DNA of 64,000 bases, from the NCBI GenBank assembly GCA_965248195.1, contig CBDFIQ010000002.1:64001-128000 (forward strand), given 5' to 3'. This document shows positions 29,812 through 59,082 of the stretch, one piece after another. Each line of letters starts with the position of its first letter. Within the stretch, counting starts at the first letter, position 1. Under the pieces are notes generated by a model. It searched no databases, was not told the DNA's origin, and saw only the letters and a list, made by a program, of their open reading frames with translations. The translations under genes and the position numbers were made by a program. The DNA comes from Longimicrobiales bacterium (GTDB lineage: Bacteria; Gemmatimonadota; Gemmatimonadetes; Longimicrobiales; Gaopeijiaceae).

Positions 29812-30753
29812 TCAGCCCATGCGCAAACACCGCTTACAACGGAGGCCTCGACCTCCGGCGTACTTTAATACGCGCCCCAGACCCACGTCGTCGAAGTAGC
29901 TGCCCAAGCAGAGCGTAAGACTGTCGGGCTCTGCGAGGAACGCCTTTACAGCCCAAGGCCGGCCCATGATGCCGCATAGGAGCAGCAGGGTCCGCGGTCC
30001 GGTGGGTCCGTCGGTCGTGTTCACCCCCCATCCGATCTCGTCGGCCCACACATCGAACACCTCGGCTGTTTCGTGCGCTCGGAAGCGATCGACTCTCAGT
30101 ACCGCACGGAAAGAGACTCCGAGCAGACGCTCGATGGCGTCGACATCGTGTTCCGTACTGCACACGAGGAATGCCTCACCGCCCCTTTTGGCCAGGGCGG
30201 CCGCCAGCCGCGGCCGACTCCAACGCATCGCGTGATGGAAGACCGTCGCGGGCAAGCGGTGGAAATGCCGGAGGTCGGGAAACCCTCGCAGCACGTCCTC
30301 CGCCTGAACTCCATGGCAGCGCGAACGGGGTAGGCCCACGAGAAACCTCTCGCGGATCCTCGGATCGGATGAGGCGGTCAACCGCTCGAGGCAGTCCTCG
30401 AGAAGATGTCTGACATGCGCAGAACAGATCTCGACGCCATCCCTGTTGGAATGTGCCCCCTCGATCAAACAACGGCACTCACCGTCGTTGAAGTGTGCGA
30501 ATCCGAACCCCCGACCCTGGTCCAGCTCTCGGAGCACGACGTGAATGGGCCATGCGTCGCACCCAGGCGATTTTCCGTGCTCGGAAGACTCCGTGCGCCC
30601 GACGTCGGATCCCTGTCCGACGCCGGATTTCTGCACGCCCCAGATCGACCGCGAGTAGACCCGGCGTTGTGGCAAAATGCCTCGTCGTGCGAGCCAGCCT
30701 CGCAGAACCCGTAGAGGCGGAGTGTCCATCCAAGCTCCTACCCGTCGTATCAT
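29812..30753 (-). CDS. Hypothetical protein, possibly GT-D-fold glycosyltransferase-like
   Basis: FGFAHFNDGE resembles the GT-D RFxDGE motif; coupled to the upstream sulfotransferase by an ATGA overlap. Confidence 0.5.
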   Translation of the reverse strand: MIRRVGAWMDTPPLRVLRGWLARRGILPQRRVYSRSIWGVQKSGVGQGSDVGRTESSEHGKSPGCDAWPIHVVLRELDQGRGFGFAHFNDGECRCLIEGAHSNRDGVEICSAHVRHLLEDCLERLTASSDPRIRERFLVGLPRSRCHGVQAEDVLRGFPDLRHFHRLPATVFHHAMRWSRPRLAAALAKRGGEAFLVCSTEHDVDAIERLLGVSFRAVLRVDRFRAHETAEVFDVWADEIGWGVNTTDGPTGPRTLLLLCGIMGRPWAVKAFLAEPDSLTLCLGSYFDDVGLGRVLKYAGGRGLRCKRCLRMG

Positions 30754-31715
30754 GCTTTGCTAAAGGGCGCCCTCAGGGCGCGCAAACGCCAGAGTTGGGA
30801 CCGGATGATCATGGTGGTGGCGGCCCTCGCCAGGGGGTGACTGCTCTTTGGGACCTGAAGTGTGGGGGCATATCCCCCCGCTGAGAGGACCCGGGCTAGA
30901 AGGGCCTCGGTCTTCTCCAGTTGAGACCGCGAGAGGACGTCGTGGTAACGGCCTACGGCCGCCTTCGAGACGCCATGTAGAGCAGAGTCGAATCTCGAGT
31001 TTCCGAAATACTCGGCCCCGAGAACGGTCGGCATGGCAACGACGGGGTCGTAGGGAACGTCCAGAAACCGACAGACCTCCCGCATGACACGAACAGGGTC
31101 TTCTACGAGTCGTTCATAGGAAACTACGAGGAAGCGCGTGTCCTGCTCGTGTTGGGTCACGACCTGATGTGCGAGTCGCCCCGTGAGTGCCAGCTGAAAA
31201 ATGGAGCGCGACGGTTTCTGTTTCAGGGCGGAAGCGATCACGTCGCGAGGATCCCGGCGCATCACCAGAATTCGCGCGTCTGCCGGAAACCACCTCAGGA
31301 GTAGGTCGCACTCGTAGAGATGGCGTGGGGTCTTTTCCACCCACCGGGCTTCCTGAGACGACCGTGTAAGCTCCCGCCATGCCTCTACCAGGGCGAGCAA
31401 TCGCGCCCGCGGCCCCCGTGTCCGGTTGAATGCACGCTCGAGGGCCTCCTCGACATCCTCCCTCGACATGGATGGCCGGTGCCGGTGAATGGTGGTCCAA
31501 AGGTAAGTTCGGTCGAGCACGGCGGTGACCGGGTCTCCAGATCTAGCCCAGTCGAACAGGTGTGTCTCGAACGGGATGACGAGGAGTTGCGGATGATTAT
31601 CCAGCAGTGCCCGCAGCAGATTCGTGCCCGATCGCGGATGGCCGACGATGAAGGTCGCGGAGGCAGCGCTCCGGGCGTCCCTCGATCGGGGTACACCAGC
31701 ATCAGAACCGTTCAA
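30750..31715 (-). CDS. Sulfotransferase (Sulfotransfer_3 type)
   Basis: 5-prime PSB FIVGHPRSGTNLL, WVEKTP, 3-prime PB RDPRDVIAS, YERLVEDP. Confidence 0.92.
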   Translation of the reverse strand: MNGSDAGVPRSRDARSAASATFIVGHPRSGTNLLRALLDNHPQLLVIPFETHLFDWARSGDPVTAVLDRTYLWTTIHRHRPSMSREDVEEALERAFNRTRGPRARLLALVEAWRELTRSSQEARWVEKTPRHLYECDLLLRWFPADARILVMRRDPRDVIASALKQKPSRSIFQLALTGRLAHQVVTQHEQDTRFLVVSYERLVEDPVRVMREVCRFLDVPYDPVVAMPTVLGAEYFGNSRFDSALHGVSKAAVGRYHDVLSRSQLEKTEALLARVLSAGGYAPTLQVPKSSHPLARAATTMIIRSQLWRLRALRAPFSKA

Positions 31716-32464
31716 GGTTCTTCAAATCGGTAACCGAAGTGATCGACGTGACGATGATACGCCTTGGCTACGATCTCTCGTGTTCGATCATCGTAGTACG
31801 CCGAATAGTGTTGCCGCTCGGGCCTGCTCTTCGACTTCAATGACGGAAGGTTGGATTGGGCTACTCCGATCCGTTCGCAGACCGACCTGTAGTCGTCCTG
31901 GAGATTCTCGTAGCGGATCACGAAGTCGAGCCCCATCGAGCCCGAACGGTCGAAGTAGAAACGATCGTTTGACGGATAAAAACGCAACATGTAAGTCACG
32001 AAAAACTCGAGCGTGAGCTCCTCGATCTTCAGGAAGGATCGGGCGAGCCCCGCCCCCAGGACGATGAAATTCTTCCGCAATTGGAAGGGTTTCCTCCAAA
32101 ACCGACGCAGGCTCCTCCCAACGGTTCCCTCATAACGGTGCCAAACGTCCCCCCGGGTCGCCCAGTGGTACTGGGACACCACCAGATCCCAGGGATTGCG
32201 AATGACGGCGAACTTGAAATAGTCATCCCATAACTCTCGACCGAGGCGCCTTCGGACCGGGATCAGGCCTGAGTGACGGTCGTAACCTCGCCATCTCGTT
32301 CCTGGGTGTTCGTACTGGTCCTCGTCCCATTTGGGGTTGAACGCACCGATCGGAGTGACGATGTCGCCGTCTCGACAGTGCTGAGCGAGTGCTACTTCCA
32401 CGCTGGTCCCGGCGACTTTCCGGGCCTTGAGGTATATGAATTTATGGCGATGAGAAATGATCAT
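31712..32464 (-). CDS. Sulfotransferase family 2
   Basis: MIISHRHKFIYLKARKVAGTS, FAVIRNPWDLVVS, RYENL. Confidence 0.92.
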   Translation of the reverse strand: MIISHRHKFIYLKARKVAGTSVEVALAQHCRDGDIVTPIGAFNPKWDEDQYEHPGTRWRGYDRHSGLIPVRRRLGRELWDDYFKFAVIRNPWDLVVSQYHWATRGDVWHRYEGTVGRSLRRFWRKPFQLRKNFIVLGAGLARSFLKIEELTLEFFVTYMLRFYPSNDRFYFDRSGSMGLDFVIRYENLQDDYRSVCERIGVAQSNLPSLKSKSRPERQHYSAYYDDRTREIVAKAYHRHVDHFGYRFEEP

Positions 32465-32584
32465 GGATGGATTGCGAACGAGAGCCCACCTCGGTCAGCG
32501 GATGTTGCAGTTCCCTTGGGAGAATAGCAAACTGGTCAACCATGATGGTCCTGTCGGCGTCCATGCTCGTCTCGCGAACGTGAG

Positions 32585-33526
32585 ATGACCTCGCCACGTG
32601 ACGTGACCCCGGGAGGGCCTGCCGTCGACCTCGTGTACACTTGGGTCGACGGGGACGACGCGCAGCTTCGGGCCGACATAAAACAATACGCCTCTGGTTC
32701 GAAGCATCTCAACCCTGAGCGGATGCGCGATCCGTATGATCTGCTCCGCTATAGTCTCCGGTCGGCGGACATGTTCGCGCCCTGGATCAGAAATGTCCAC
32801 ATCATTACGCGTCGCCCGCAGGTCCCGAGGTGGCTCGACACGAACAATCCACGGATGCACGTCGTTCACCACGACGAACTGAGTGGCTTTGGACCCTATC
32901 TACCGACGTTCAACTCGACCGTCATCGAAAGCTTCGTCCATGCCGTCCCCGGTCTCTCAGACCACTTCCTCTATCTAAATGACGATTTTCTTTTCGGGGC
33001 CCCGTCAGTACGGGAGGACTTCTTGACGACCACCGGAAAGCACAAGGTCTTCGGAACGTATTTCGGCATCTGGCTTCCTTTCCGGATCTATCGAAAACGA
33101 TGGAAATTCTACAACAACGGCCACATCGAGCACTGTCCCAGGTTCATCTATCGACCGTTTTGGGAAGCCATGTTGGAGGCCCATGGCAAGGCGCTGCACC
33201 GGACGCGCAGCAACCGCTTCCGGGCTGGATCAGATCTACGCATGGATCGACTCTACCGAATGTGGATGCTCGGGCCGAGGAGGCGGGACTCCGAGCCGGT
33301 GAAGGCTCGCGATCTGCTTCGGTACCACCGCTTTCACCGGATCGATAACAACCGCAAGAGGCAGGACCGCCGTCTGGACGCCCTCGTAAGGATGCGGCCC
33401 AAGTTCTATTGTCTCAACGATGACCAGGGAGCAAATCCCGATGCCTGGGTCTGCGACCGCGTGCAGGGGTTCCTGGACGCCTATTACCCCGACGCGTCCG
33501 AGTTCGAGCGGCGGGCAACACCGTGA
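32585..33526 (+). CDS. Stealth-family hexose-1-phosphate transferase
   Basis: CR1 DLVYTWVDG; CR2 LRYSLRS..PW...PTFNS..IE...GLSDHFLYLNDD; CR4 FYCLNDD. Confidence 0.92.
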   Translation: MTSPRDVTPGGPAVDLVYTWVDGDDAQLRADIKQYASGSKHLNPERMRDPYDLLRYSLRSADMFAPWIRNVHIITRRPQVPRWLDTNNPRMHVVHHDELSGFGPYLPTFNSTVIESFVHAVPGLSDHFLYLNDDFLFGAPSVREDFLTTTGKHKVFGTYFGIWLPFRIYRKRWKFYNNGHIEHCPRFIYRPFWEAMLEAHGKALHRTRSNRFRAGSDLRMDRLYRMWMLGPRRRDSEPVKARDLLRYHRFHRIDNNRKRQDRRLDALVRMRPKFYCLNDDQGANPDAWVCDRVQGFLDAYYPDASEFERRATP

Positions 33527-34278
33527 GCGTCAGCGCGGTCATCCTGAACTGGAATCGGCCGTTATGGTTACGCCGTGTGATCCTGCCCTTGCTCGCTCGG
33601 CATCCTCTCGTCGACGAGATTCACGTTTCTCACGGCCGTGAGCGGACGTGCTTCTCGTTCGAGAGCCCACGCTGTGAGATCGTCCACCGTCACGACTGGG
33701 ATCTCGACGATCGTTATGGGCTCGCTTTGCGTTTTGTGGCAGCGAGGGAAGTAGAGAACGACGCGGTTTTGATCCTCGACGACGACTTGGTCGTAGCCGG
33801 GCGCTCGATCACGCATCTCAAGGCTTCCTTCGACGCAGCGCCCCATACGCTACACGGGATCTTCGGACGTCGTATCAGCCCGGCCTACGAATACTCCTAC
33901 GACGGATACGAGCAGGGTGAGACACCGCTCGTACTGACTCGCTGCCTCATGATGCACCGTTCCTACGCGGACGTATTCCTCGAAGCGGAGCCATCCGCAG
34001 CCGGGCTCATCGCCCGGGGCGTACCCAAGTGGAACGGGGAGGACATCTTCCTTTCGCTTCTGTCGATTCGGAGGACAGGCACCCTGCCCCGTGCCTACGA
34101 TCTTCCCTACAAGAATGTCTGGGGAAGGCGTCGCGGCAGCGTCTCAACGACGAAGGTGCCCCCTGGTGAGGGGGAGAAGATGGCCCACAAGGCCTACCGT
34201 TCCTGGTTCACGGGTGAGGCCATCGAACTGCTCGGGGTCCAGACCCAGATCGACGGTTACCTGGGGAGGACTGGCTGA
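33523..34278 (+). CDS. GT64 (EXTL/exostosin C-terminal-like) glycosyltransferase
   Basis: LRF..., DAVLILDDD, GIFGR, LVLT, NGEDI and H..YRS match the GT64 motif order. Confidence 0.75.
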   Translation: MSVSAVILNWNRPLWLRRVILPLLARHPLVDEIHVSHGRERTCFSFESPRCEIVHRHDWDLDDRYGLALRFVAAREVENDAVLILDDDLVVAGRSITHLKASFDAAPHTLHGIFGRRISPAYEYSYDGYEQGETPLVLTRCLMMHRSYADVFLEAEPSAAGLIARGVPKWNGEDIFLSLLSIRRTGTLPRAYDLPYKNVWGRRRGSVSTTKVPPGEGEKMAHKAYRSWFTGEAIELLGVQTQIDGYLGRTG

Positions 34279-34282
34279 GGGG

Positions 34283-35971
34283 TCAGGGCTCGCCCTGCCG
34301 GAATTCGAACGTGAGCCCAAGTCGCAAGAGGAAGGAGAAGCGTCCCTCCCTCGACCCGTCCACATGGCCTGCATTGGAGATGAAGCTTCGTCCCATGTCC
34401 CACTCCAGGAAGAACTCGCTGCGGGGCTGATACCGCCCCTGCAGCGCCACACGCTTGGTGGTCTCCTTTACCCCGATGAAGATCCCGGGTAGGGCCAAAA
34501 ATTCATCCAGCGGCGGAAAGGGAATGCGGTAATCACCCTCCCCCGTGCGCTGAAACTGAAACACGGGTGAAAGGCGGAGACCCTCAACGGAGGGATACAG
34601 GTCGGCCCGCAAGGTGAGACGGTCGTAGTCTGACCACGGGTCGCCCAGCCCCCGGTCGAGGTGCGTCCAAATTTCTGTTAGGACACCTGAACGGTACGAC
34701 AACGCGGAAACTCTGCGGTAGTCGAAGCCGAGCTCGAGGCGATCGGATACACCGAGGTAACGTCCACCCAGGCTCAGCTGAAACGAGGTCGCCTCGATGG
34801 GGCGGTCCACCTGCCCGGTGCGCGGGTTGAGGTCGAAATCGTCGAGGGTGAACTCGCCGTAGAGCGTTACCTGCCCCACCCGTGACCAGAACATCCCGTT
34901 GAACATCAGGTTTCCCGAGATCTCCGTCCGCTTATTGTTGGCGTTGTGGTCGAAGAAGATCAACTCCAGCGGGTTGAAAAGCCTTAACACCGCACTCTCA
35001 CCCGAGTATAGAGCGGCCTCACCGAGCGACACCCAAAAATTGCCGCGGCGGTAGTCGAGCCGATTGCCGACGATGTAGCGCTGTCGCCCGTCGACCGACT
35101 CCAACTCGCCGGCCATGAAGCGGAAGCTGAGGGCTCCCCGCCCCAGGTCGAGTCCGACCTGGGGATAGGTAGTGGCATTGTCCCCGATCATCATGCCCGT
35201 CTGGCCGATGGGCCCCCAGTTCCGTTTGAATCGGCCGACCCAGATGTTGCCCCACGGGTAGGCCAAGGTCAGGTAGGCGTTGTCCGTGCGCCCTAGGGCC
35301 TTGAAACCTCCTGGATTCTGGCCGTCCGGATCTCCGTGCTTCTTATAAAACCAGGTGTCCCAGAAGAGCCTCGTCTCCACAGCGACGTTATGGGTTTCCA
35401 GCCAGAGACCGCCTGCCCAGGACCACCAGGCGCGATCATTAAACCCTTCATTTTCGGAGGTGCGGAAAGGCATCAAGGGATCACGGCGTCGGCTGTCCGC
35501 ACCGGTACGCCCATGAAGGAACTGGAAGCCCACTCGCTGCCTAGACGCCTCATCCTCCGATTCCGAGAGGCGCCTGAACTCAGGGGCGAGTTCGCGCATC
35601 AGCATACGGACCCAGCCGGCGGCCGGCGCTTTTAGCGAATCCGGTTCGACGCCGAGCAGCTCCATTGCGACATCGATCCTGCGATAGGGCTGTGCTAGCG
35701 GATTCAGGCCCGGCAGGTACCCTCTGCTCCGGAGCCGTTCGATGTTTTCGTACGTCCACGAGTCTAGCGAAAGGATGCGTGATCCCATGCGGCCCGGGTC
35801 TTGGGCGGACGCGCGAGGGGGAGCCCAAAGCTCGGGACCCAGCAACACCATGCCAATGAGCATCGAGCGCAGGGTGAACCCTACGGCGCCGGATACCACG
35901 ATGATGCGCTCTGCCGGGCCGGGTGCCGCCATGCTGGCCTCCACTGATATCGGACTCATGCTGCTCTTCAC
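34283..35971 (-). CDS. Wzi-like capsule-assembly outer-membrane beta-barrel
   Basis: Helical N-terminus (PYRRIDVA), GRFKRNWGP, LYGEFTLDD; amphipathic beta strands. Confidence 0.7.
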   Translation of the reverse strand: MKSSMSPISVEASMAAPGPAERIIVVSGAVGFTLRSMLIGMVLLGPELWAPPRASAQDPGRMGSRILSLDSWTYENIERLRSRGYLPGLNPLAQPYRRIDVAMELLGVEPDSLKAPAAGWVRMLMRELAPEFRRLSESEDEASRQRVGFQFLHGRTGADSRRRDPLMPFRTSENEGFNDRAWWSWAGGLWLETHNVAVETRLFWDTWFYKKHGDPDGQNPGGFKALGRTDNAYLTLAYPWGNIWVGRFKRNWGPIGQTGMMIGDNATTYPQVGLDLGRGALSFRFMAGELESVDGRQRYIVGNRLDYRRGNFWVSLGEAALYSGESAVLRLFNPLELIFFDHNANNKRTEISGNLMFNGMFWSRVGQVTLYGEFTLDDFDLNPRTGQVDRPIEATSFQLSLGGRYLGVSDRLELGFDYRRVSALSYRSGVLTEIWTHLDRGLGDPWSDYDRLTLRADLYPSVEGLRLSPVFQFQRTGEGDYRIPFPPLDEFLALPGIFIGVKETTKRVALQGRYQPRSEFFLEWDMGRSFISNAGHVDGSREGRFSFLLRLGLTFEFRQGEP

Positions 35972-36037
35972 GAGCGAGAGTCGCCTAGGTTAACCGAGGC
36001 GAATGGCCGTCTCAAGGCAGATCGATCCGGCGATGGG

Positions 36038-37891
36038 TCAAGCTCCCACGGGTGCGTCCGTCTCGGATTGGGCCCGATAGAGTTGGTGAAAAGCACCACG
36101 CCGCTCGATCAACTCACTCCAAGTGCCGCTCTCGACGATGCGACCACCCTCGAATACGAGGATGAGGTCCGCGTCCCGAATGGTGGACAGTCTGTGTGCG
36201 ATGACGATGAGCGTATGTCCCGTCAGCCGCCGCTTGATCGCGTCAGCCACACCCTGCTCGATCACGCTGTCTAGTGCCGAGGTCGCTTCGTCTAGAATCA
36301 CTATGTCCGGATTTCGCAAGAGAGCTCGAGCGAGTGCGATGCGCTGCCGCTGTCCGCCGGAAAGACGCACGCCCCTGTCACCCACCTCCGTGTCGAGACC
36401 GTTCGGAAGGTCCTCGAGAAAGCCGTCGAGCGCGACGTCGGAGAGGGCCCGGACCAACTCCCCGTCCGGCACCGTCCTCTCGAGACCAAACGTGAGATTG
36501 TCGCGCAAAGACCTGTTCAATAGCCAGACATCCTGGCTGACGATGGCCATGCGGGCATGCAGCGACGGGAGGGAGTACTCCCGGACGTCGGTACCATCCA
36601 GAAGGATCGTGCCGGGATCACAATCGTAGAAGCGTGCAAGGAGATCGACGAACGTCGTCTTGCCGGCTCCACTCGAGCCCACGATAGCGGTGACTTTACC
36701 GGCGCGGATGGTCGTATTCAGGTCATGCAGAGCCTCCGTCGCGCCTGCGTAGCGGAAGTAGAGCTTTGAGACCTCGATCTCGTGCTCGAGCCCGCCGAAG
36801 GTCTTGTCGCCGGAGGGCACGATGAACTTGCCCTCATCGGAAAAGAGCCCTGCCACGGCTTCCAAACGAGGAAGTTCCTCGAAGACTCGGACGCCAAAAC
36901 GGCTGATCAGCTTGTAGTCGCGAAGTGCTTGCTGAAGCACGATCAGAAAAGCGCCGAAAACCGCCAAGTCCGCCGGGCGAAAATCCCCGGTCGCATAGAT
37001 GAACACGCCCTGTACCAGGAGCATCGCCAGGAGGATGGTGATTTCCTCGATGGGATAGCGAATTCCGATCGCCCGTTCGCGCCGCACGGCCACGCTCTCG
37101 CCTTGGCGGAGGACCCCCTCGTACATACCCGATGCGGTCTCTTCCTGCGAGTACGCCTTTATGAGCGGAATGGCGCCCAAGAGATCGAGGATTTGTGCGC
37201 GTATCTGTCGGTCTACCTCGACCCCCTCCTCCGAAATGCGCTTCACGGCCCGATTCACTGCGGCCACCAGACGTTGCACCAACGGCAGCGTCACGATGAA
37301 GGCGATGGAGAGCGGGATCGAGATCGCCATCATCACGGCGGCCTTCACCAGCAGTGAGACCACATAACGGAAGAGCTCCTGAGCCGCGATCAGCAGTCCG
37401 AGCACGGAGCTGGACCAACCGATTTCCGCATCGATTCTGCCAATCGCCTGGCCGTCGAAGTACTGTCGACCGAACGCGAGCACTCTGCCGAACGTCTCCT
37501 TGCCGACCTTTACCCGGTACCGTTCGTTGCGCGCCGTCGCGATGATCCGCGACACATATTGGAGCCCCTGCTTCCCGACACGTCCGAGAATCATCAGGAC
37601 GGCGAGGCAGAGCACGAGGTAGGCGTCTCTCGCGGAGGGGTCCAGTCCCTCCGGGACGAGCCGGAGGATCCACCCGAAGGCTCTCGACTCCTCGAGGAAG
37701 TCGAAGGAGTTCTCCACCACCGCGTCCTTGAGCGGGATGAGAAGTGAGAACGAGACCCCTTCGAAAGCGCTCGCGACCAGGATCAAGCCCATAGGTAGCG
37801 CCAGGTGCCACGCCTTGACCTCAGCCACCCGCCAGTAGTGGCGGAGGACGCCGATCGGCGTCGCTCGTGTCCCTTTTTCCGTTGCCGTCAT
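36038..37891 (-). CDS. MsbA-like ABC exporter (fused permease/ATPase)
   Basis: TM domain, GSSGAGKT, LSGGQRQR, LDEATSALD, IAHRLST. Start uncertain (up to 37957). Confidence 0.93.
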   Translation of the reverse strand: MTATEKGTRATPIGVLRHYWRVAEVKAWHLALPMGLILVASAFEGVSFSLLIPLKDAVVENSFDFLEESRAFGWILRLVPEGLDPSARDAYLVLCLAVLMILGRVGKQGLQYVSRIIATARNERYRVKVGKETFGRVLAFGRQYFDGQAIGRIDAEIGWSSSVLGLLIAAQELFRYVVSLLVKAAVMMAISIPLSIAFIVTLPLVQRLVAAVNRAVKRISEEGVEVDRQIRAQILDLLGAIPLIKAYSQEETASGMYEGVLRQGESVAVRRERAIGIRYPIEEITILLAMLLVQGVFIYATGDFRPADLAVFGAFLIVLQQALRDYKLISRFGVRVFEELPRLEAVAGLFSDEGKFIVPSGDKTFGGLEHEIEVSKLYFRYAGATEALHDLNTTIRAGKVTAIVGSSGAGKTTFVDLLARFYDCDPGTILLDGTDVREYSLPSLHARMAIVSQDVWLLNRSLRDNLTFGLERTVPDGELVRALSDVALDGFLEDLPNGLDTEVGDRGVRLSGGQRQRIALARALLRNPDIVILDEATSALDSVIEQGVADAIKRRLTGHTLIVIAHRLSTIRDADLILVFEGGRIVESGTWSELIERRGAFHQLYRAQSETDAPVGA

Positions 37892-38105
37892 CCGGTCGTC
37901 GGCCTTCTGCTGGAACTTTAGGGTATCGGATTGCCTCCCTGCGGTTGAGTATAGCACTGGCCGGGGGCGTGAACGACCGGGCTCGGGCCTTGGACGGCAC
38001 GTCGGCCTTGACGTTGCCTCACGGCGCGGTGTCTTTCAGATTCCCAGCGGACCGATTTCCAGCACCCTATGAACCAGAGGGGCGTGTGGGACCTCCTGTA
38101 CCATC

Positions 38106-40234: not shown

Positions 40235-40244
40235 GCCCCGTGCC

Positions 40245-40940
40245 ATGATTCCGCGCGTGATTCACCAGACCTGGAAGGACCGTGACGTCCCGGAGCGGTT
40301 TCTCGCTGCGCAGCGCAGCTGGCAGGAGACACACCCCGACTGGGAGTACCGCTTCTGGACCGACGTGGACCTCGCAGTCCTGGTGCGGGAGCGGGCGCCC
40401 GAGCTGGTCCCCGTCTATGAGCGGTACCCCGAGGCCATTCAGCGGGTCGATGCCGCGCGTTATGTGATTCTCAGAGAATTTGGAGGGGTCTACGCGGACC
40501 TGGACTTGGTATGCCTCCGCCCGATCGACGCACTCCTCGACGCCGAGGTGGTGCTTCCGCGAACGACACCCTTCGGTGTTTCGAATCAGTTCATGCTTTC
40601 CGTGAAAGGACATTCACTGTTCTGCCATGCGGTGGCCTCCCTGCCGCGGGCCTACGCGAAGTGGGGCAGGGCGTGGCCGCGCCACGTGCGGGTCCTCACT
40701 ACGGCGGGCCCTCTCTTCCTGACTGGGCGATTGCGAGAGCACGGAACCAATGCAGGGATGCGAATCCTCACACTGGACGAGCACGGACACGGTGACCCGG
40801 AGGTCGCCTACGTGGGCCACCTTCGCGGCAATACCTGGGCGGCTTGGGACACTCACGTGATCAACTTCTTCCACGACAACTGGAAGTGGCTCGCGGCGGG
40901 TGCCGCGGTCTCGGCCGTGCTGTTGCGAACCCTCGTTTGA
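40245..40940 (+). CDS. GT32 DXD glycosyltransferase, Sur1/MIPC-synthase-like, C-terminal TM helix
   Basis: IPRVIHQTWK, HPDWEYRFWTD, RVDAARY..L..FGGVYADLD, TTPFGVSN, AGPLFLT. Confidence 0.88.
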   Translation: MIPRVIHQTWKDRDVPERFLAAQRSWQETHPDWEYRFWTDVDLAVLVRERAPELVPVYERYPEAIQRVDAARYVILREFGGVYADLDLVCLRPIDALLDAEVVLPRTTPFGVSNQFMLSVKGHSLFCHAVASLPRAYAKWGRAWPRHVRVLTTAGPLFLTGRLREHGTNAGMRILTLDEHGHGDPEVAYVGHLRGNTWAAWDTHVINFFHDNWKWLAAGAAVSAVLLRTLV

Positions 40941-41091
40941 GCGCCGGCCGCGTTGCCGCTTGCCATGAAAGATTGACGACAGGCGATCCGCGACCCTAAG
41001 CTCCTCGGACGAACCCCACCCTCTGCCTCGTCACATATGATTCGCCTAAATCGTTCTTTCTTCGGGTATTCGATCGACCGCCGGATCCAAG

Positions 41092-42303
41092 GTGTCTGAA
41101 CGCGGACCCGACGTGTTGGACAAGGCGTACGAGTTCCACGTCGCGGACGACGCCAGAAAGGCAGGCGTCTACCCGTACTTCAAACCTTTTGACTACAACG
41201 ACGGACCCGAGTCGGTCATCGATGGCAAACGTGTGACGATGTTCGGCTCCAACAACTACCTGGGGCTGACCACACACCCCAGGGTTCGGGAGGCGGCCGT
41301 CGCCGCCATCGCGAGGTTCGGAACGAGCATGACCGGGTCTCGCTTCGTGAACGGCTCTATGAAGCTGCATGGAGATTTCGAAGAGAAAATCGCCTCTTTT
41401 TATGGGAGAGAGTCCGCGCTCGTCTTCACCACTGGTTATCAGGTGAACCTCGCCTTGGGCTCTGCCCTCCTCGGTGCGGAGGACAGCGTCGCTGTGGTGG
41501 ACCGAAGCGTGCATGCGTCGATCTATGACGGCGTACGCCTGGGCCAGGCGGCGGGCGGGCGGATGGTTCGGTTCAGACACAACTCGGCGGCTTCCCTGGA
41601 CCGCGCACTCTCCAAGCTCAAGGCCACTGAATCCGCACTCGTGATGACGGATGGCGTGTTCAGCGCCGAGGGTGACATCGCGAAGCTTAACGACCTGATC
41701 CCGGTGGTCCAGAAGCATGGTGCGAGACTCTTTTTGGACGACGCTCACGCTCTTGGAGTCATCGGGCCAGGCGGGCGCGGCACCGCGCATTACTTCGGCT
41801 TGGAGGGTGATGTCGATCTTATCGGAGGCACGTTCAGCAAGTCGCTGGCCAGTGTCGGCGGGTACCTCGTCGGAGAGCGGAAGGTGCTGGATTACATAAG
41901 ACATTTCGCACCTTCCTTCATGTTTGCGGCAAGTGGGGCGCCGTCCTGTATTGCCGCGGCGATGGCCGCGTTCGAGGTAATGCAGGAAGAGACTTGGCGG
42001 ATTGATAAATTGAGGGAGAACTACACCTACATGAAGGATGAGCTCACAAGGATGGGGTTCGAGCTGAGTGCCACGGAGAGCGCCGTCATCCCGATCTACG
42101 TTCGTGATGATGCGCGCACACTGGAGTTTTGGAGGGTGTTGTTGGAGGATTACTCCGTGTACACGAATCCATTTATCTCGCCGGGCGTGCTGCCCCGGGA
42201 CTCTCTCCTGCGCACGAGCTACATGGCCACCCATGATCGCGAACATCTCGATCGGGGCCTCGAGGCCCTCCGAAGCGTCGGGAAGCACCTCGGGGTAATC
42301 TGA
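41092..42303 (+). CDS. spt: Serine palmitoyltransferase (alpha-oxoamine synthase)
   Basis: GVYPYF N-terminus, GSNNYLGL, GSRFVNG, DDAH, GTFSKSLA (PLP Lys); context with bCerS, reductase and ACP. Confidence 0.85.
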   Translation: MSERGPDVLDKAYEFHVADDARKAGVYPYFKPFDYNDGPESVIDGKRVTMFGSNNYLGLTTHPRVREAAVAAIARFGTSMTGSRFVNGSMKLHGDFEEKIASFYGRESALVFTTGYQVNLALGSALLGAEDSVAVVDRSVHASIYDGVRLGQAAGGRMVRFRHNSAASLDRALSKLKATESALVMTDGVFSAEGDIAKLNDLIPVVQKHGARLFLDDAHALGVIGPGGRGTAHYFGLEGDVDLIGGTFSKSLASVGGYLVGERKVLDYIRHFAPSFMFAASGAPSCIAAAMAAFEVMQEETWRIDKLRENYTYMKDELTRMGFELSATESAVIPIYVRDDARTLEFWRVLLEDYSVYTNPFISPGVLPRDSLLRTSYMATHDREHLDRGLEALRSVGKHLGVI

Positions 42304-42378
42304 ATCGTCGGCGAACCCGTCCAAGGGCGGAGTTCGCGTTCAGGGCGCGGATGAGCGGCGAAAAGGGGACGACAGTCT

Positions 42379-43365
42379 GTGCGAATCTTGCTGACGGGAG
42401 CCTCTGGATTTCTCGGCTCTCACATTGCCGAGCAACTCGATCAGCAAGGTGCCGATGTCCGTGCGTTGGTCCGGCCGACGAGTGATACCCGATTTCTGGA
42501 AGGGCTCGCGCATGTGACACTTCTGTCCGGGGCGATGAGCGACGAGGGCAGCTTACTCGCGGCGACAGAAGGTGTGGACGGAATTATCCATGCTGCTGGT
42601 TTGGTCAAGGCCAGGGCGCCGGCCGACTTTTACCGGACGAACGAGCAGGGGACAGCCAATCTACTCGATGCAGCGAAGCAAAACGCTCCGGATATCGAGC
42701 GCTTCGTGTTGATCTCGTCGCTGGCGGTGATGGGACCTAGCGAGGACGGACGGCCCGTCCTGGGGGGCGCGCCTCCCAATCCAGTGACCCACTATGGACG
42801 GAGTAAACTGGCCGCAGAACGAGCCGCGCGGGCCGAGGCGCACTCGCTGCCGATCACGATCATCAGGCCCCCGATGATCTACGGACCCCGCGATCGGGAG
42901 ATCTTTCCCTTCTTCAAGTCCGTGCAGCTAGGGGTTCTTCCGTTGACGGGCTTGTCGGGTTCCCGGCTGAGCGCCATTTACGCCACCGACTGTGCCGCGG
43001 CGTGCATCAAGGCGCTCGGGGCGAACGTACCTAGCGGCTCTAGATATTTTGTCGAGGATGGACACCTGGAAACTCTAGGGGGACTGATTGCCCACATCGA
43101 AAACGCGCTCGGCAGGCGCGCCTGGTTGCGAATCCCGGTGCCCCGCCTCCTGATGCACGGGGCGGCTCTGGCCAGCGAACTCTACGGAAGGGTCAGGGGA
43201 CGTGCGGTCATGTTGACGCGGGACAAACTGAACGAAATATTGGCCCCACACTGGGTGTGCGATTCATCGGAAGCGCAATCCGCGCTTGGGTGGAAGCCTC
43301 GCATTTCCTTCGAGGAGGGGACCCGGATCACCGGCGCATGGTATCGCAGCGAGGGTTGGCTTTAG
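42379..43365 (+). CDS. Extended SDR/NAD-dependent epimerase, probable ceramide (3-keto) reductase, CerR-like
   Basis: TGASGFLG, YGRSK, RPPMIYGPRD; directly after spt. Confidence 0.8.
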   Translation: MRILLTGASGFLGSHIAEQLDQQGADVRALVRPTSDTRFLEGLAHVTLLSGAMSDEGSLLAATEGVDGIIHAAGLVKARAPADFYRTNEQGTANLLDAAKQNAPDIERFVLISSLAVMGPSEDGRPVLGGAPPNPVTHYGRSKLAAERAARAEAHSLPITIIRPPMIYGPRDREIFPFFKSVQLGVLPLTGLSGSRLSAIYATDCAAACIKALGANVPSGSRYFVEDGHLETLGGLIAHIENALGRRAWLRIPVPRLLMHGAALASELYGRVRGRAVMLTRDKLNEILAPHWVCDSSEAQSALGWKPRISFEEGTRITGAWYRSEGWL

Positions 43366-43452
43366 GGTCAGACGGGCACAAAGCGTGCAAGCATGGTATG
43401 TTAATATTCGATTCCTGCAGGATTGTCGTCTAAGTCCAAGTTGGAGGCCCCG

Positions 43453-43692
43453 TTGAAGTCTTATGATTTTCTCGTCAAGCTTCTTGTAGAGGAGTTTGGC
43501 GTGGACGCCGGCGAGTTGGTCCCCGACGCGTCGCCGGTGGGTCTCGGACTGGACTCCCTTTCCACCATGGAGATGGTGAGGGAGCTGGAGGACGAGTTCG
43601 GCATCAAGTTCTCGACACAGCAGGTTAATTTTTCCACCCTGGGTGAGGCGGCGGCCCTAGCCGATGAGTTGATCGAGGCCAAGGGTCTCTGA
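43453..43692 (+). CDS. Acyl carrier protein 1
   Basis: LGLDSL; GGAGG RBS before TTG 43453; 79 aa. Confidence 0.9.
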   Translation: MKSYDFLVKLLVEEFGVDAGELVPDASPVGLGLDSLSTMEMVRELEDEFGIKFSTQQVNFSTLGEAAALADELIEAKGL

Positions 43693-43697
43693 GCCCT

Positions 43698-44942
43698 GTG
43701 CCCGTTCGCCGCACGTTCATCACAGGGATCGGCATCGTGTCTCCTCACGGGGACGACATGGATGCCGTGTTCGATCGGGTTTTTGCGGGAGAATCTGCGG
43801 TCCGCAAGGTGCCGATCGAGGCCAACGGGTCGAGGAGCGACATGCTTCTGTCACCGGTCGACTTCGATCCCGGCCACCTGATTCCCAAGCTACCGGGCCG
43901 TTACATGGCCCGGGCGAGCAAGATGGCGGTGGTCGCCGCGCATCACGCCTTGGAGGGATCGGGCCTGTTGGTATCCGGTGCTGGGCCGGCGGAGACGGGA
44001 ATTTACATAGGGTGTGGACTGGGGGGCTCCGAAGAGCTCCAGGCGCACTATGAACGTTATCTGGCTGATCCCCCCAGGAGGCTGAGAGCCGCGACCACGC
44101 CGATGATCATGGCGAGTGGTCCGGCCTCACACATCTCCATGACGTATGGGATTACCGGCCCGAGCGTGACCTATTCCATCGCATGCGTATCCTCGGCGGT
44201 GGCGATCGGCGAGGCGTTTCGTGCGATTCGACATGGGTACCTCGAGACGGCCTTGGCCGGCGGAGCCGAAGCCCAACTCAACACCGGGACCTTGGCTGGT
44301 TGGAGGGAGCTTAGCGTCCTCGCGAGTGAACACGCGACCGGTGCCGAGGCTTCCAGCCGGCCGTTCGACACGCAGCGGACAGGCCTGGTGCTCGGCGAGG
44401 GCTCCGTCGTTCTCGTGCTCGAAAGCGAGAGCGCAGCTCGAGCCAGAGGTGCAGAGCCACTCGCGGAGATCGTGGGCTACGGTGTCTCCAGCGATGCGTA
44501 CAACCTTACGGAGCCTTCTCCGGATGGTCAGGCTCGTGCGATGCGCTTGGCGCTGGAGGACGCATCCGTTTCGTGCGCGCGCATAGGGTATGTGAACGCA
44601 CACGCCACCGGCACGCTCTTGGGAGATCGGGTGGAGACGGAAGCCATCAAGAATACCTTCGGCTCGCATGCCGACAAGCTGGCGGTAAGCTCCACAAAGT
44701 CGGTTCACGGCCACCTGATCGGCGCCACGAGCGCGCTGGAGACTGCGTTGACGGTTCGTATGTTAGAGACCGGCCGGATCGCGCCAACCGCAAACCTCAC
44801 CGATCCCGATCCGCAGTGCGACTTGGATTGTGTGCCGTTGGTCGGCCGAGAGGCTCCGGGGCTGGAGTACGCCATTACGAACTCATTTGCTTTTGGTGGC
44901 ACCAATGCGACGCTGGTGCTGCGAAAGGCGATCGCCTCATGA
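43698..44942 (+). CDS. Beta-ketoacyl-ACP synthase (FabF-like) 1
   Basis: SIACVSS, NAHATGT, STKSVHGH, NSFAFGG. Confidence 0.93.
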   Translation: MPVRRTFITGIGIVSPHGDDMDAVFDRVFAGESAVRKVPIEANGSRSDMLLSPVDFDPGHLIPKLPGRYMARASKMAVVAAHHALEGSGLLVSGAGPAETGIYIGCGLGGSEELQAHYERYLADPPRRLRAATTPMIMASGPASHISMTYGITGPSVTYSIACVSSAVAIGEAFRAIRHGYLETALAGGAEAQLNTGTLAGWRELSVLASEHATGAEASSRPFDTQRTGLVLGEGSVVLVLESESAARARGAEPLAEIVGYGVSSDAYNLTEPSPDGQARAMRLALEDASVSCARIGYVNAHATGTLLGDRVETEAIKNTFGSHADKLAVSSTKSVHGHLIGATSALETALTVRMLETGRIAPTANLTDPDPQCDLDCVPLVGREAPGLEYAITNSFAFGGTNATLVLRKAIAS

Positions 44943-45000
44943 AGACGAATGGTACATTATGTCTTCCGTACCAGATCATGTCTTCAGGAGGTGTGAGCGC

Positions 45001-45240
45001 GTGACCCCCTATGCGTTCTTGGCCGAGACTTTGGCCGAAAAATACGAGGTCGATCGGGACGCGATCAGCCCCGAGGCGACGCTGACCGAGCTCGGACTCG
45101 ACTCCCTCACGATCGTCGAGCTCCTGTTCGACGTTGAAGACGAATTCGACATCGAGGTTCCCGAGGAGCGCGCCACCTTTCAGACGCTTGCGGAAGCCGC
45201 GGCGTTGGTGGAGGAACTCGTCCGAGCCAAGGGGGCCTGA
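45001..45240 (+). CDS. Acyl carrier protein 2
   Basis: LGLDSL; AGGAGG RBS before GTG 45001; 79 aa. Confidence 0.92.
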   Translation: MTPYAFLAETLAEKYEVDRDAISPEATLTELGLDSLTIVELLFDVEDEFDIEVPEERATFQTLAEAAALVEELVRAKGA

Positions 45241-45246
45241 GCCCCC

Positions 45247-46482
45247 GTGCATGGCCGCCGCGTCTTCGTGACGGGGCTCGGGTCAGTTTCCCCGCACGGG
45301 GATGACCCGGCGGCGATGTTCGAGAGGATCTGTCTCGGAGAGTCTGCCATCCGTATGGTCCGATCCGGCACTCCGGAAATGGGGGCCGATGTGCTGCTCG
45401 CCTCCATCGAATTTGAGCCTGGCGACCGAATCAATAAGGTTGACCGCCTCTTCATGGCGCGGGCGGCCCAAATGGCCGTGGTCGCCACCCGAAACGCTCT
45501 GGAGGACTCCGGTCTCATGGCTGAAGGGCGTGGGCCCGAGGAGGCAGGAGTGTTCATGGGGTGCGGGCTCGGAGGAGCCGAAGTCCTTCAGCATTCCTAC
45601 AGTATCTACTTCGAGCGACAAACCAGGCGGGGTAGGCCGACCACGGTCCCTATGATCATGGCCAATGGGCCAGCCTCTCAGGTTTGCATGCAATTCGGAA
45701 TCTACGGGCCCGCCCATACATACTCGATCGCGTGCGCCTCGTCATCCGTTGCCATCGGCGAAGCCTTTCGGTCCATCCGAGACGGGTACTCTGACGTGGT
45801 CATCGCCGGGGGAGCGGAGGCCATGCTCAACGACGGGTCCGTGGCTGCATGGCAGGCCGTCGGTGTGATTGCCAAGGAGCACGCGGATGGCGCGGGGGCG
45901 TCTTGCCGTCCGTTCGACCTGGAACGTACGGGCCTCGTTCTGGGAGAAGGGGCCGCCACGCTCATTCTCGAGAGCGAGGAGCGAGCCGCGGCACGGGGGG
46001 CCGACCTCCTCGCGGAGATCATCGGTTTCGGCGCTTCAAGCGACGCGCACAAGCTCACGGAGCCGTCGGTCGACGGGCAGGAGCGTGCCATTCGGAATGC
46101 TCTCGAAGATGCCGGGCTCCCGGCCGATGCTGTGGGTTACATCAATGCGCACGCGACGGGAACCCCTGCTGGTGATCGGGTCGAGATCGAGGCGATCAAG
46201 CGGGCGTTCGGGGGGGCGGCTCAGCGCGTCGCCATCAGTTCGACCAAGTCCATGCATGGACACCTCGTGGGAGCATCCGGTGCGCTCGAGTGCGCAGTTA
46301 CAGCGCTGGCGCTCTGCGAGCGCCGGATTCCGCCGACGGCCCACTTGACTGTGCCGGATCCGGCATGCGATCTCGATTGTGTCCCCGGTGTGGGTCGCGA
46401 CGCTCCGGATCTCGAGGTCGCCATGTCGAATTCGTTCGCTTTCGGGGGGTCGAACGCCACGCTGGTACTGCGGCGGGCTTGA
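45247..46482 (+). CDS. Beta-ketoacyl-ACP synthase (FabF-like) 2
   Basis: SIACASS, NAHATGT, STKSMHGH, NSFAFGG. Confidence 0.93.
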   Translation: MHGRRVFVTGLGSVSPHGDDPAAMFERICLGESAIRMVRSGTPEMGADVLLASIEFEPGDRINKVDRLFMARAAQMAVVATRNALEDSGLMAEGRGPEEAGVFMGCGLGGAEVLQHSYSIYFERQTRRGRPTTVPMIMANGPASQVCMQFGIYGPAHTYSIACASSSVAIGEAFRSIRDGYSDVVIAGGAEAMLNDGSVAAWQAVGVIAKEHADGAGASCRPFDLERTGLVLGEGAATLILESEERAAARGADLLAEIIGFGASSDAHKLTEPSVDGQERAIRNALEDAGLPADAVGYINAHATGTPAGDRVEIEAIKRAFGGAAQRVAISSTKSMHGHLVGASGALECAVTALALCERRIPPTAHLTVPDPACDLDCVPGVGRDAPDLEVAMSNSFAFGGSNATLVLRRA

Positions 46483-46496
46483 CGCGGAGCGTCATC

Positions 46497-47480
46497 ATGC
46501 CCGGTGTGCGCCTCGCCCCTTGGAGCCCGACTCTCTTGCGGGCTGGCATCCTCGTCGGCGCGACGCTGCTGCTCGTGGTGGCGCTTCGGGACATCGATTG
46601 GGACCGGCTGCTTCAACTGCTTCGAGCGCTCCGCCTCCCCTGGGTCGCCGTCGCCATCGGTCTGAACGGGTCGATCATCGTTCTGTGGTCGCTACAGTGG
46701 AGGATTTTGGTGCCTGGCGAAGGCTCAGTGACATGGGCTGACATGTTCCTGGTGGTCTCTGCCATGGCCATGATCTCGAATTCGGTTCCGTTCATGGTCG
46801 GCCAAGCCTCGGGCGTGTTGCTTCTGGCTCGATACGGGCGCATCGGCCCGGCCTCCGCGCTGTCGGTTTATACGATGGAGCAAGTGGCCGAAGGGATCGC
46901 CAAGATCGTGGTGGTGGTCGGTGTGGCATTGTTCGCCCCGTTACCCCCTTGGCTCGCTCGCGGCGTGCGGGGTCTCGCGGTGCTAGTGTCGGTGCTCGGC
47001 GTGACGTTCGTCGCCCTTGCCTTTCGCTTCCGACACCCTCCTTTTGCTCCGCAGCCAGCGGGTGCGCTTGGCCGATTGAAGCGCTTTGGAGCCCAATGGG
47101 CCCACTCGCTCGAAGGGCTACGTACGCCGCACGTGTTCGGGGCCGGGCTCGCTCTCGCATTGGGGATGAAAACGGCCGAATTGGGGGGAATCATCGCTGT
47201 TCAGCATTCTCTGGGCTTGGACTTGCCGGTGGGCACCGCCCTTTTGGTTTTGGCGAGCGTCAACTTTGCGACGATCGTTTCAGTCTCACCCGGAAATCTG
47301 GGCGTGTTCGAGGCTGCGTCGTTTGCCGCATACCGGCTCGCGGGCGTCAGTCCGGAGCAGGCCTTTGCGTTGAGCCTGGTCCAGCACGTCTGCTACCTGA
47401 TTCCGATGCTGGGGGTGGGGTACGTCAATGGTGGGATGCGGGTGTTCAAGGAGCTTCGAGATCCGGCAGCTCCCTCATGA
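46497..47480 (+). CDS. Lysylphosphatidylglycerol-synthase TM / flippase-like membrane protein
   Basis: Multi-TM; QWRILV, ISNSVP, VSPGNLGVFE. Confidence 0.82.
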   Translation: MPGVRLAPWSPTLLRAGILVGATLLLVVALRDIDWDRLLQLLRALRLPWVAVAIGLNGSIIVLWSLQWRILVPGEGSVTWADMFLVVSAMAMISNSVPFMVGQASGVLLLARYGRIGPASALSVYTMEQVAEGIAKIVVVVGVALFAPLPPWLARGVRGLAVLVSVLGVTFVALAFRFRHPPFAPQPAGALGRLKRFGAQWAHSLEGLRTPHVFGAGLALALGMKTAELGGIIAVQHSLGLDLPVGTALLVLASVNFATIVSVSPGNLGVFEAASFAAYRLAGVSPEQAFALSLVQHVCYLIPMLGVGYVNGGMRVFKELRDPAAPS

Positions 47481-57630: not shown

Positions 57631-57639
57631 TCCTACATC

Positions 57640-59067: not shown

Positions 59068-59082
59068 TACAGGCCCCCTCCA

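Follow-up and report, generated by a model that had tools for sequence, protein, structure and literature searches.

The sequence analyzed here (the window) is a stretch of 64,000 nucleotides from a Longimicrobiales bacterium (GenBank assembly GCA_965248195.1, contig CBDFIQ010000002.1, positions 64,001 to 128,000). The genome that carries it is called G000, and the window corresponds to G000:C2:64001-128000. A cluster of genes for the predicted synthesis, decoration and transport of a sphingolipid lies at about 28.8-48.5 kb; genes are lettered A to S from left to right and are listed, with a left neighbour, in Table 1. Pfam matches were counted when they scored above the curated cut-offs. Every gene family named in a preliminary description of the locus was recovered. 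Pfam and NCBIfam identified serine palmitoyltransferase (Spt), a bCerS-like acyltransferase of the GNAT type, a CerR-like short-chain dehydrogenase/reductase (SDR), two acyl carrier proteins (ACP) and two FabF-type ketoacyl synthases (KS), glycosyltransferases (GT) of families GT32 and GT64, a Stealth protein, three sulfotransferases (ST), an ATP-binding cassette (ABC) exporter and a flippase-like protein; a GT-D-like open reading frame (ORF; A) and a Wzi-like barrel (F) were borne out by fold.

Genes H to R (38106-48529) are separated by gaps of at most 151 bp. Overlaps of 4 bp (ATGA, TTGA or GTGA), several of which had been described before, were found at A/B, B/C, D/E, H/I and Q/R, and a further one is possible at P/Q. 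The overlap is GTGA at D/E and at H/I, where the GTG start of the GNAT gene lies over the TGA of H, and ATGA at Q/R. Because of the overlaps and short gaps, H-R was read as one operon on the + strand. The start of the GNAT gene was corrected from 38966 to 39056, and that of the second ACP gene is most likely 45001, behind AGGAGG. The cluster had been placed at 29812-47480; its genes do lie there, but the unit is larger, since R is translationally coupled to Q, which moves the right border from 47480 to 48529, and a gene for a secreted tetratricopeptide repeat (TPR) protein is a conserved neighbour on the left. At 28-40 kb the GC content falls slightly below that of the flanks. In a simple hydropathy scan no signal peptide and no membrane segment was seen in A-E or H-L; signal-like N-termini were seen in F, in S (the amidohydrolase) and in the TPR protein, and hydrophobic segments were counted in G (five) and in Q (seven). 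The lack of such features in the decorating enzymes fits assembly of a head group at the cytoplasmic face, followed by flipping.

Table 1. Genes of the cluster and of its left neighbour, in window coordinates.
Gene	Predicted product	Coordinates	Strand	Basis
TPR	TPR protein, secreted, possible periplasmic partner; conserved left neighbour of the cluster	28805-29665	-	TPR Pfam matches, signal-peptide-like N-terminus
A	GT-D-fold glycosyltransferase-like protein	29812-30753	-	fold only
B	Sulfotransferase (Sulfotransfer_3/_1)	30750-31715	-	Pfam 104.2 bits
C	Sulfotransferase (Sulfotransfer_2), variable among congeners	31712-32464	-	Pfam 37.7 bits
D	Stealth-family hexose-1-phosphate transferase, 313 aa	32585-33526	+	CR1, CR2 and CR4 above cut-offs; CR3 20.7 vs 24.2
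E	GT64-family glycosyltransferase	33523-34278	+	Glyco_transf_64 47.4 bits (cut-off 21.3), profile positions 59-187 of 245
F	Wzi-like outer-membrane beta-barrel, position variable among congeners	34283-35971	-	predicted fold
G	Fused ABC exporter (membrane and nucleotide-binding domains, TMD-NBD), MsbA/HepA-like architecture; candidate inner-membrane flippase	36038-37957	-	ABC_membrane + ABC_tran
H (ST4)	Sulfotransferase (Sulfotransfer_4), opens the core operon	38106-39059	+	Pfam 53.2 bits
I	bCerS-type GNAT N-acyltransferase	39056-40234	+	GNAT Pfam
J	GT32 glycosyltransferase, between GNAT and Spt	40245-40940	+	Gly_transf_sug 66.2 bits
K	Serine palmitoyltransferase (class I/II aminotransferase, alpha-oxoamine synthase)	41092-42303	+	PDB and Pfam matches
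L	CerR-type SDR reductase	42379-43365	+	Pfam SDR/Epimerase
M	Acyl carrier protein 1	43423-43692	+	PP-binding, DSL motif
N	FabF-type ketoacyl synthase 1	43698-44942	+	Pfam; NCBIfam fabF 387.9 bits; Cys/His/His motifs
O	Acyl carrier protein 2	45001-45240	+	PP-binding; start inferred from upstream AGGAGG
P	FabF-type ketoacyl synthase 2	45247-46482	+	Pfam; NCBIfam fabF 404.3 bits; Cys/His/His motifs
Q	MprF-type membrane protein, candidate lipid flippase	46479 (TTG) or 46497 (ATG) to 47480	+	LPG_synthase_TM 121.6 bits (cut-off 33.4), seven hydrophobic segments
R	D-2-hydroxyacid/phosphoglycerate dehydrogenase-like enzyme	47477-48529	+	2-Hacid_dh_C 172 bits
S	Amidohydrolase, lipoprotein-like signal; possible member	48644-50410	+	Amidohydro_3; kept in G005, G006 and G011; synteny within genus only

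The genes for Spt (K), the GNAT protein (I) and the SDR (L) lie within 4.3 kb. The best PDB matches of K were serine palmitoyltransferases (SPT; 8guh/3a2b, E 1e-104, 353.7 bits); scores were about 241-244 bits for the Sphingomonas SPT, 221 for KBL (2e-64), 198.5 for cysteate acyltransferase (1.6e-57) and about 174 or lower for BioF. A sulfonolipid (capnine) pathway as the principal account of the cluster was ruled out by this preference for SPT over cysteate acyltransferase. The GNAT protein was aligned over its full length (388 columns) with an N-acetyltransferase of Sphingomonas parapaucimobilis (31% identity, E 6e-58), and L, also over its full length, with the Sphingomonas NAD(P)H-binding protein encoded upstream of ACP-Spt (31% identity, E 1e-37). 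The Sphingomonas locus was reached by tblastn of the GNAT sequence against plasmids (NZ_CP155753.1, L144). L carries the GxxGxxG and YxxxK motifs, and a PDB sequence search returned nothing for the GNAT protein. The earlier assignment of a ceramide core was upheld by this homology to the Sphingomonas sphingolipid locus. As judged by homology, the K/I/L triad is a member of the Spt/bCerS/CerR bacterial ceramide pathway; its proteins were compared directly with those of Sphingomonas and, for Caulobacter, through the description of the locus. Genes H-R very probably make a ceramide-type lipid.

Conservation of the triad was examined in relatives. SDR, Spt and GNAT genes were found side by side in all seven order-level genomes examined, at 33-46% identity to the window proteins. 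When 80 loci with a GNAT relative were retrieved, from Gemmatimonadota, Bdellovibrionota, Planctomycetota, Bacteroidota and others, 32 of them also held a Spt homologue. I is the only full GNAT of its family in G000, and it is flanked by Spt and the reductase, which makes ceramide synthesis the simplest reading. A distant GNAT paralogue (25% identity, E 3e-26) with one in-frame TGA lies just upstream of the window (G000:C2:61567-62565). At one locus of the order (L061), over about 13.5-17.7 kb, genes for a GNAT protein, a Glyco_trans_1_3 protein and an ABC exporter (50% identity to G) adjoin a squalene-hopene cyclase gene and genes for a radical SAM enzyme with DUF3463 and an Epimerase-family SDR, the last two presumably HpnH-like and HpnA-like, that is, hopanoid genes.

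The three sulfotransferases B, C and H all score above their Pfam cut-offs and belong to three different families. B carries the motifs PRSGT and RRDPRD..S, which are of the 3'-phosphoadenosine-5'-phosphosulfate (PAPS)-binding type (5'-PSB/3'-PB). When the whole genome was searched for the three families, only B, C, H and one weak Sulfotransfer_3 match (C2:3084407) were found. PAPS may be supplied by a fusion of PUA, ATP-sulfurylase and adenosine-5'-phosphosulfate (APS) kinase domains (Sat-CysC) encoded at G000:C2:906008-907837. Sulfation of the product lipid, or of its head group, is probable. The PDB sequence matches of the Stealth protein D were N-acetylglucosamine (GlcNAc)-1-phosphotransferase (GNPT) and CpsY (E 1e-29 to 3e-34). 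The GT64 protein E carries a DDD motif and had no solved structure among its PDB sequence matches; the GT32 protein J carries a DLD motif and its PDB match was Och1 (E 2.2e-9). A homologue of R (28-29% identity) is present in five GNAT loci of other genera, and R could supply serine as a phosphoglycerate-dehydrogenase-like enzyme.

Protein A gave no Pfam match even at E<=10, GT-D and GT-D-like models included. Its AlphaFold2 (AF2) model (predicted local distance difference test, pLDDT, 74.9) matched the DUF1792 (GT-D) structure 5v4a_B with Z 14.2 and a root mean square deviation of 3.7 over 210 residues, the next chain reaching 8.5, and Foldseek returned only three matches at E<=0.001, all of them DUF1792. 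Because of the missing Pfam match, A was filed as GT-D-like by fold only. The protein is rare: a search of 1.84 billion representatives gave 20 relatives at E<=0.001.

The barrel F likewise had no Pfam match even at E<=10, Caps_assemb_Wzi included. Its AF2 model (pLDDT 72.9) has an N-terminal helical bundle (helices 73-136) followed by 18 strands. The best solved match was Wzi (2ynk, TM 0.56/0.69), followed by AlgE (0.40/0.51), and the Atlas score to Wzi-named clusters was 0.98; BLASTP against two Pfam-positive Wzi proteins, of G343 and G307, was unconvincing (E 1.1 and 0.001). The exporter G scored best against the NCBIfam HepA family (HepA_fam, 385.9 bits) and reached 336.7 bits against MsbA (cut-off 602); both scores are below the cut-offs. 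G ranks seventh among the nine MsbA-like genes of the genome and was therefore taken to be a dedicated exporter and not the housekeeping MsbA, with which it shares the ABC_membrane + ABC_tran architecture only. Homologues of Q were found beside GNAT relatives in 22 of the 80 loci (6/7, 5/22, 11/36 and 0/15 by identity class), and homologues of the TPR protein (29-39% identity) beside GNAT relatives in other loci.

Within the genus, H-P were kept in 7/7 loci; Q was not found in L038. The block as a whole was kept in G005, G006 and G011, apart from variable genes of its left arm (A-F), and the TPR gene adjoins the cluster in all three. The left arm itself has at least five configurations among close relatives. 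The order is TPR-A-B-C-D-E-F-G in the window and in L140; C and F were not found in the cluster in G005 and G006; in G011, A was not found and C is present; A, B and F were not found in L035; and in L141 only TPR-C-F-G precede H. A metagenome scan with H gave only two close loci and is informative for genus-level variation only. The preliminary description had raised the possibility that the left block is separate from spt in relatives; the block was found to be syntenic with it. The left arm would be an exchangeable decoration module, its content varying as in O-antigen loci. The chances that the whole of it decorates the same lipid are about even.

Outside the genus, an even sample of 401 genomes of the order was searched. 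Spt was found at E<=1e-90 in 143 of them, distributed over three families as 18/256 (f1), 63/71 (f2) and 61/73 (f3); these tallies include the unpublished genomes G025, G122, G172, G109 and G181. Five family-level genomes carry Spt at 62-68% identity. In two of these (G307 and G343, Spt 66-68%) the order is Spt-SDR-ACP-KS-GNAT (GNAT 41-42%) and then Glyco_trans_1_3. G307 has an extra KS and ACP, and each of the two also carries an ABC exporter (47-48% to G) and a Pfam-positive Wzi (E 1.3e-14 and 1.2e-31). Their glycosyltransferases are other than those of the window; among their GT2-type genes are matches to Glyco_transf_21, the ceramide glucosyltransferase family.

ST4 (H) was detected at E<=1e-8 in 12 of the 401 genomes: G000, eight of the nine other genomes of g1, G345, and two genomes with weak matches. 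In G345 (Spt 68%), contig C17 carries ST4 (59%), GNAT (61%) and then the first 53 residues of GT32. On contig C28, 22 kb from Spt, lie PAP2, the rest of GT32, a 35-residue piece of ST4, Stealth (34%), an ABC exporter (52%) and Wzi (E 3.7e-31). The GT32 pieces are 66-87% identical to J, and the piece on C17 is joined to a C-terminal AcrB fragment; the split reflects either a real rearrangement or the assembly of two strains. In all, Spt clusters of three genera (that of the window, g66 and g68) come with an ABC exporter and a Wzi-type barrel, and ST4, GT32 and Stealth accompany Spt in two (the window's own and, with G345, g66), lying in G345 either on the Spt contig or together as one unit. An order-level scan for Stealth gave weak matches in six other genomes, and that of G347 is on another contig than Spt. 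A further locus (L102), considered as a Caulobacter-like layout, carried planctomycete-type genes and no LptFG and was of no use for deciding membership.

The genes at 28.8-48.5 kb are predicted to form a single system in which an anionic sphingolipid is made, decorated and exported, a reading whose probability we put a little above even. On dedicated carriers, the ACP/KS pairs would assemble acyl chains of a special kind, probably very long ones. Spt would condense one acyl chain with serine, the GNAT protein would add a second chain and the SDR would reduce the 3-keto group to yield dihydroceramide. GT32, Stealth, GT64 and the GT-D-like enzyme would then add sugar and sugar-phosphate at the cytoplasmic face of the inner membrane, and up to three PAPS-dependent sulfotransferases (H, B and C) would sulfate the product with PAPS from the Sat-CysC fusion. 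The MsbA-type exporter G, perhaps with Q, would flip the finished lipid, and the secreted TPR protein and the Wzi-type barrel F would receive or hold it at the surface. The earlier proposal that one locus builds, decorates and exports a sulfated glycosphingolipid stands in so far as a sulfotransferase and GT32 lie in the ceramide operon and ST4, GNAT, GT32, Stealth, ABC exporter and Wzi occur with Spt in another genus; it is weakened by the restriction of A, B, C and E to the genus and by the presence of F orthologues in a polysaccharide locus. A more elaborate version, which we consider rather doubtful, is a ceramide-anchored sulfated phosphoglycan coat, in which H and GT32 would start the head group, Stealth and GT64 extend it, G and the MprF-type protein flip it and the Wzi-type lectin hold it, with left-arm 'serotypes', and in which the core with its extra ACP/KS would be a source of marine very-long-chain sulfated ceramides.

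Several observations weigh against a single sphingolipid system. K falls below all NCBIfam Spt equivalog cut-offs (CFB type 443.9/640, the best; beta 365.9/500; alpha 278/670), these models being lineage-specific with none for Gemmatimonadota. Spt was absent from the loci of the closest relatives of the GNAT protein outside the genus (55-75% identity; 0/22, and 0/15 where at least 8 kb was available on both sides), and in 5/5 such genomes no alpha-oxoamine synthase exceeded 42% identity to K; since its closest extra-genus relatives lack Spt, the GNAT family is not strictly tied to sphingoid bases. In protein A the NDGE motif is conserved, and the window copy has Arg at Cys143, a residue of a CxxC pair that is kept in at least 90% of aligned relatives. 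To these are added the shortfall of G against the MsbA model and the finding that ST3 (B), ST2 (C), GT64 (E) and GT-D (A) lie beside spt only within the genus, none being beside spt in the extra-genus loci examined. Stealth and Wzi are known from capsule systems. Orthologues of F (78-81% identity) in G005 (L139) and G006 (L138) lie outside the cluster, directly behind the PAPS synthase, where sugar-nucleotide and GT genes surround them and G005 also has a Wzz-type gene; because of this position, which is the strongest evidence of its kind, part of the left arm could act on a sulfated polysaccharide.

These points can be accommodated by two adjacent systems, in which H-R make a ceramide, perhaps simply glycosylated or sulfated, and A-F, perhaps with G, modify, export or anchor a sulfated polysaccharide whose backbone is made at G000:C2 at about 897-917 kb. 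There, in a classical polysaccharide locus (C2:897000-917000, L137), G000 encodes its PAPS synthase together with sugar-nucleotide enzymes, GT4, Polysacc_synt_2 and Bac_transf, a setting like that of the F orthologues; no sulfotransferase was found among the ORFs scanned in it. Wzi and Stealth are capsule-type families (PDB matches Wzi 2ynk and CpsY/GNPT), G finds its best NCBIfam match in the heterocyst-polysaccharide exporter family HepA, A, B, C and E are unlinked to spt outside the genus, and the lower GC at 28-40 kb is in keeping with a separate left part. Yet the ORFs scanned at 13.5-63 kb of the window included no Wzx, Wzy, Wza, Wzc, KpsMT or initiating sugar transferase, and polysaccharide glycosyltransferases normally sit in their own locus, here about 800 kb away. 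Moreover, Spt clusters come with the Wzi-type barrel and the ABC exporter in three genera and with Stealth in two, and the ceramide operon itself holds one GT and one sulfotransferase out of the three. We regard two systems as unlikely. Distinctly improbable, in our estimate, is a product that is a ceramide-anchored sulfated phosphoglycan polymer, capsule- or lipophosphoglycan-like, with Stealth and GT64 as a polymerase pair acting on a glycosylceramide primer, the ABC exporter as flippase and the Wzi-type lectin as holder. Stealth enzymes include capsule polymerases that make sugar-1-phosphate polymers, D and E are translationally coupled, F fits a capsule-binding lectin best, and the left arm varies among close relatives like a serotype locus. 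D is, however, a short single-domain Stealth protein (313 aa) with no extra polymerase domains, and no chain-length regulator or KpsMT-type ABC-2 transporter was found nearby among the scanned window ORFs; sequence gives no distinction between single transfer and polymerization.

The lipid core could also be another N-acylated amino lipid, made from cysteate (a capnine or sulfonolipid base) or from alanine (a 1-deoxy base) by a GNAT with a wider acceptor range. The genomes of the closest GNAT relatives do lack Spt, K scores below the cut-off of even the best NCBIfam Spt model, and the sulfated sphingolipids of the Black Sea are, in the available text of PMC11334938, 1-deoxy forms. One locus without Spt (L046; GNAT 65% identity) encodes a CoA-transferase, a class-V aminotransferase, a flavin adenine dinucleotide (FAD) oxidoreductase, GNAT, GT4, TPR, 2-HADH, ACP and KS, followed by a 507-aa protein of no known function, LPG_synthase_TM, a deacetylase, GT32 and PAP2; its class-V aminotransferase, ACP, KS, GT4, GT32 and PAP2 together with the GNAT favour such an amino lipid, and the cluster points to an unknown N-acylated glycolipid that uses the same GNAT subfamily. 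Against this, K scores 353.7 bits to SPT and 198.5 to cysteate-C-fatty acyltransferase, no cysteate synthase was seen in the window by Pfam scans, the SDR and GNAT proteins are full-length homologues of proteins of the Sphingomonas locus, and a 1-deoxy base would still be a sphingolipid. This alternative is highly improbable, and one anionic sphingolipid system remains the preferred reading.

The predicted system was compared with characterized ones. The Caulobacter crescentus locus (ccna_01212-01226), as described in the available text of PMC11087976 and of preprint 10.64898/2026.04.12.717747, comprises Spt, ACP, CerR, bCerS, ceramide phosphoglycerate genes and LptF2/G2. As there, Spt, a GNAT-type ceramide synthase, an SDR and a dedicated ACP are clustered here with head-group and transport genes, and an anionic outer-membrane sphingolipid is predicted. 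The anionic groups would be sulfate and sugar-phosphate, unlike the phosphoglycerate of Caulobacter; two ACP+KS pairs stand in place of an acyl-ACP synthetase, and, where Caulobacter has LptF2/G2, transport could fall to an MsbA-type ABC exporter, an MprF-type protein and a Wzi-type barrel. In Sphingomonas parapaucimobilis the order is NAD(P)H-binding protein, ACP, class I/II aminotransferase, ATP-binding protein, LptF, LptG, desaturase and N-acetyltransferase, a layout that agrees with that given for sphingolipid loci in the part of the preprint available (10.64898/2026.04.12.717747). The two loci have in common homologous GNAT and SDR proteins, with ACP and Spt in the same neighbourhood; that of Sphingomonas has LptF/G and a desaturase and no sulfotransferase, Stealth, GT32, GT64, KS pair or Wzi. 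LpxC is kept in G000, unlike Sphingomonas as described in the same part of preprint 10.64898/2026.04.12.717747. Replacement of lipopolysaccharide by the present lipid, as in Sphingomonas, was ruled out by the detection of LpxC in G000 and in 38 of the 41 relatives searched.

The E. coli group 1 capsule shares with the cluster the Wzi fold of F (2ynk), and D has Stealth CR1-CR4 like CpsY and GlcNAc-1-phosphotransferase. Capsule systems differ in that no Wza, Wzc, Wzx or Wzy was found here among the ORFs scanned, F misses Pfam Wzi and the genes travel with Spt in three genera. In rhizobia, the lipid A very-long-chain cluster combines AcpXL with FabF1XL/FabF2XL. There, as here, a dedicated ACP and two FabF-type synthases occur with no reductase or dehydratase of their own, for chain extension of an outer-membrane lipid; the cluster differs in its two ACPs and in the sphingolipid acceptor that would apply. 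In eukaryotes, sulfatide is made by cerebroside sulfotransferase, glycosylinositol phosphorylceramide (GIPC) by the GT64 enzymes GINT1/GMT1, and mannosylinositol phosphorylceramide (MIPC) and globotriaosylceramide (Gb3) by the GT32 enzymes Sur1/Csg1 and A4GALT. The same enzyme families and the same logic, from ceramide to sugars to sulfate, are predicted here, but the only solved GT32 match is Och1, a protein mannosyltransferase, and GT64 has no solved match. The label 'eukaryote-like' given before holds for Pfam family membership (GT32, GT64 and the sulfotransferases) and rests on CAZy family membership only; it describes an analogy, compared at the level of Pfam families. Sulfate-1-deoxyceramides with C32-C39 fatty acids and unassigned producers were reported from the Black Sea water column (PMC11334938); in the available text no enzymes are named, 'sulfotransferase' occurs 0 times and 'Gemmatimonad' is not in the main text. 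Spt, extra ACP/KS and sulfotransferases would fit very-long-chain sulfated sphingolipids of this kind. The Black Sea lipids differ, in the same text (PMC11334938), in that their base is a 1-deoxy form and its fatty acid carries the sulfate, with no glycan reported.

Other features of the window were recorded. A second envelope-glycan block (55567-60960) encodes an ABC ATPase, a GT2, two methyltransferases and an ArnT/PMT_2-type membrane glycosyltransferase. Two of its proteins, the PMT_2 protein (38% identity, E 4e-41) and one methyltransferase (32%, E 2e-23), match a pair directly beside Spt in G347 (L062), and for this reason sphingolipid may be a further target of the block, reached from the periplasmic side. 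An IS256-family insertion sequence is present at the cluster's left edge as a pair (24053-25401 and 26758-28106; 1349 bp identical, each with a 393-aa Mutator-type transposase) that flanks two small membrane-protein genes (25433-26607), and an IS5-type transposase gene follows (28083-28763). Because the TPR gene of G011 directly adjoins homologues of both small genes, the IS256-family copies were considered recent insertions. A near-identical IS3-type pair (7291-8857 and 51948-53514; ORFs of 149 and 335 aa, two differences in the ORF span) has one copy on the right of the cluster, 1.5 kb past the amidohydrolase and TerC genes.

Reads from four runs were compared with the window, all as contigs, and uncovered parts carry no meaning. 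Eight short pieces (180-287 nt, mostly 90-95% alike and up to 99%) came from the sole RNA-labelled run (X20) and fall on the TPR gene, GT32, Spt and KS1; they attest presence in an RNA library, which is not transcription of this strain or proof of an operon. DNA contigs that skip C (31661 to 32446) or D-E were single, of low depth and with sides of less than 30 letters, and were not counted.

The core of the cluster is the known bacterial ceramide pathway; what is new is the set of head-group enzymes, the ACP/KS pairs and the transport candidates. In agreement with the earlier statement that no characterized bacterial pathway has this set, no paper describing it was found in the literature searched, nor any connecting sulfotransferases with a bacterial spt cluster or sphingolipids with Gemmatimonadota genomes. 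The bacterial Spt/bCerS/CerR route was worked out recently, and the known head groups are few, being sugars, phosphoglycerate, and phosphoethanolamine or inositol types. A sulfotransferase coupled to a ceramide synthase, with Stealth, GT32, GT64 and GT-D in the same block, would add sulfation and phosphoglycosylation to the bacterial head groups. The MsbA-type exporter, the MprF-type protein and the Wzi-type barrel recur with Spt and none of them is a Lpt paralogue; the available text of preprint 10.64898/2026.04.12.717747 treats as open how sphingolipids are flipped at the inner membrane and the outer-membrane steps of their transport. At about 20 kb the cluster is compact enough for heterologous expression, and its genes are candidates for the environmental sulfated ceramides whose makers are unknown.

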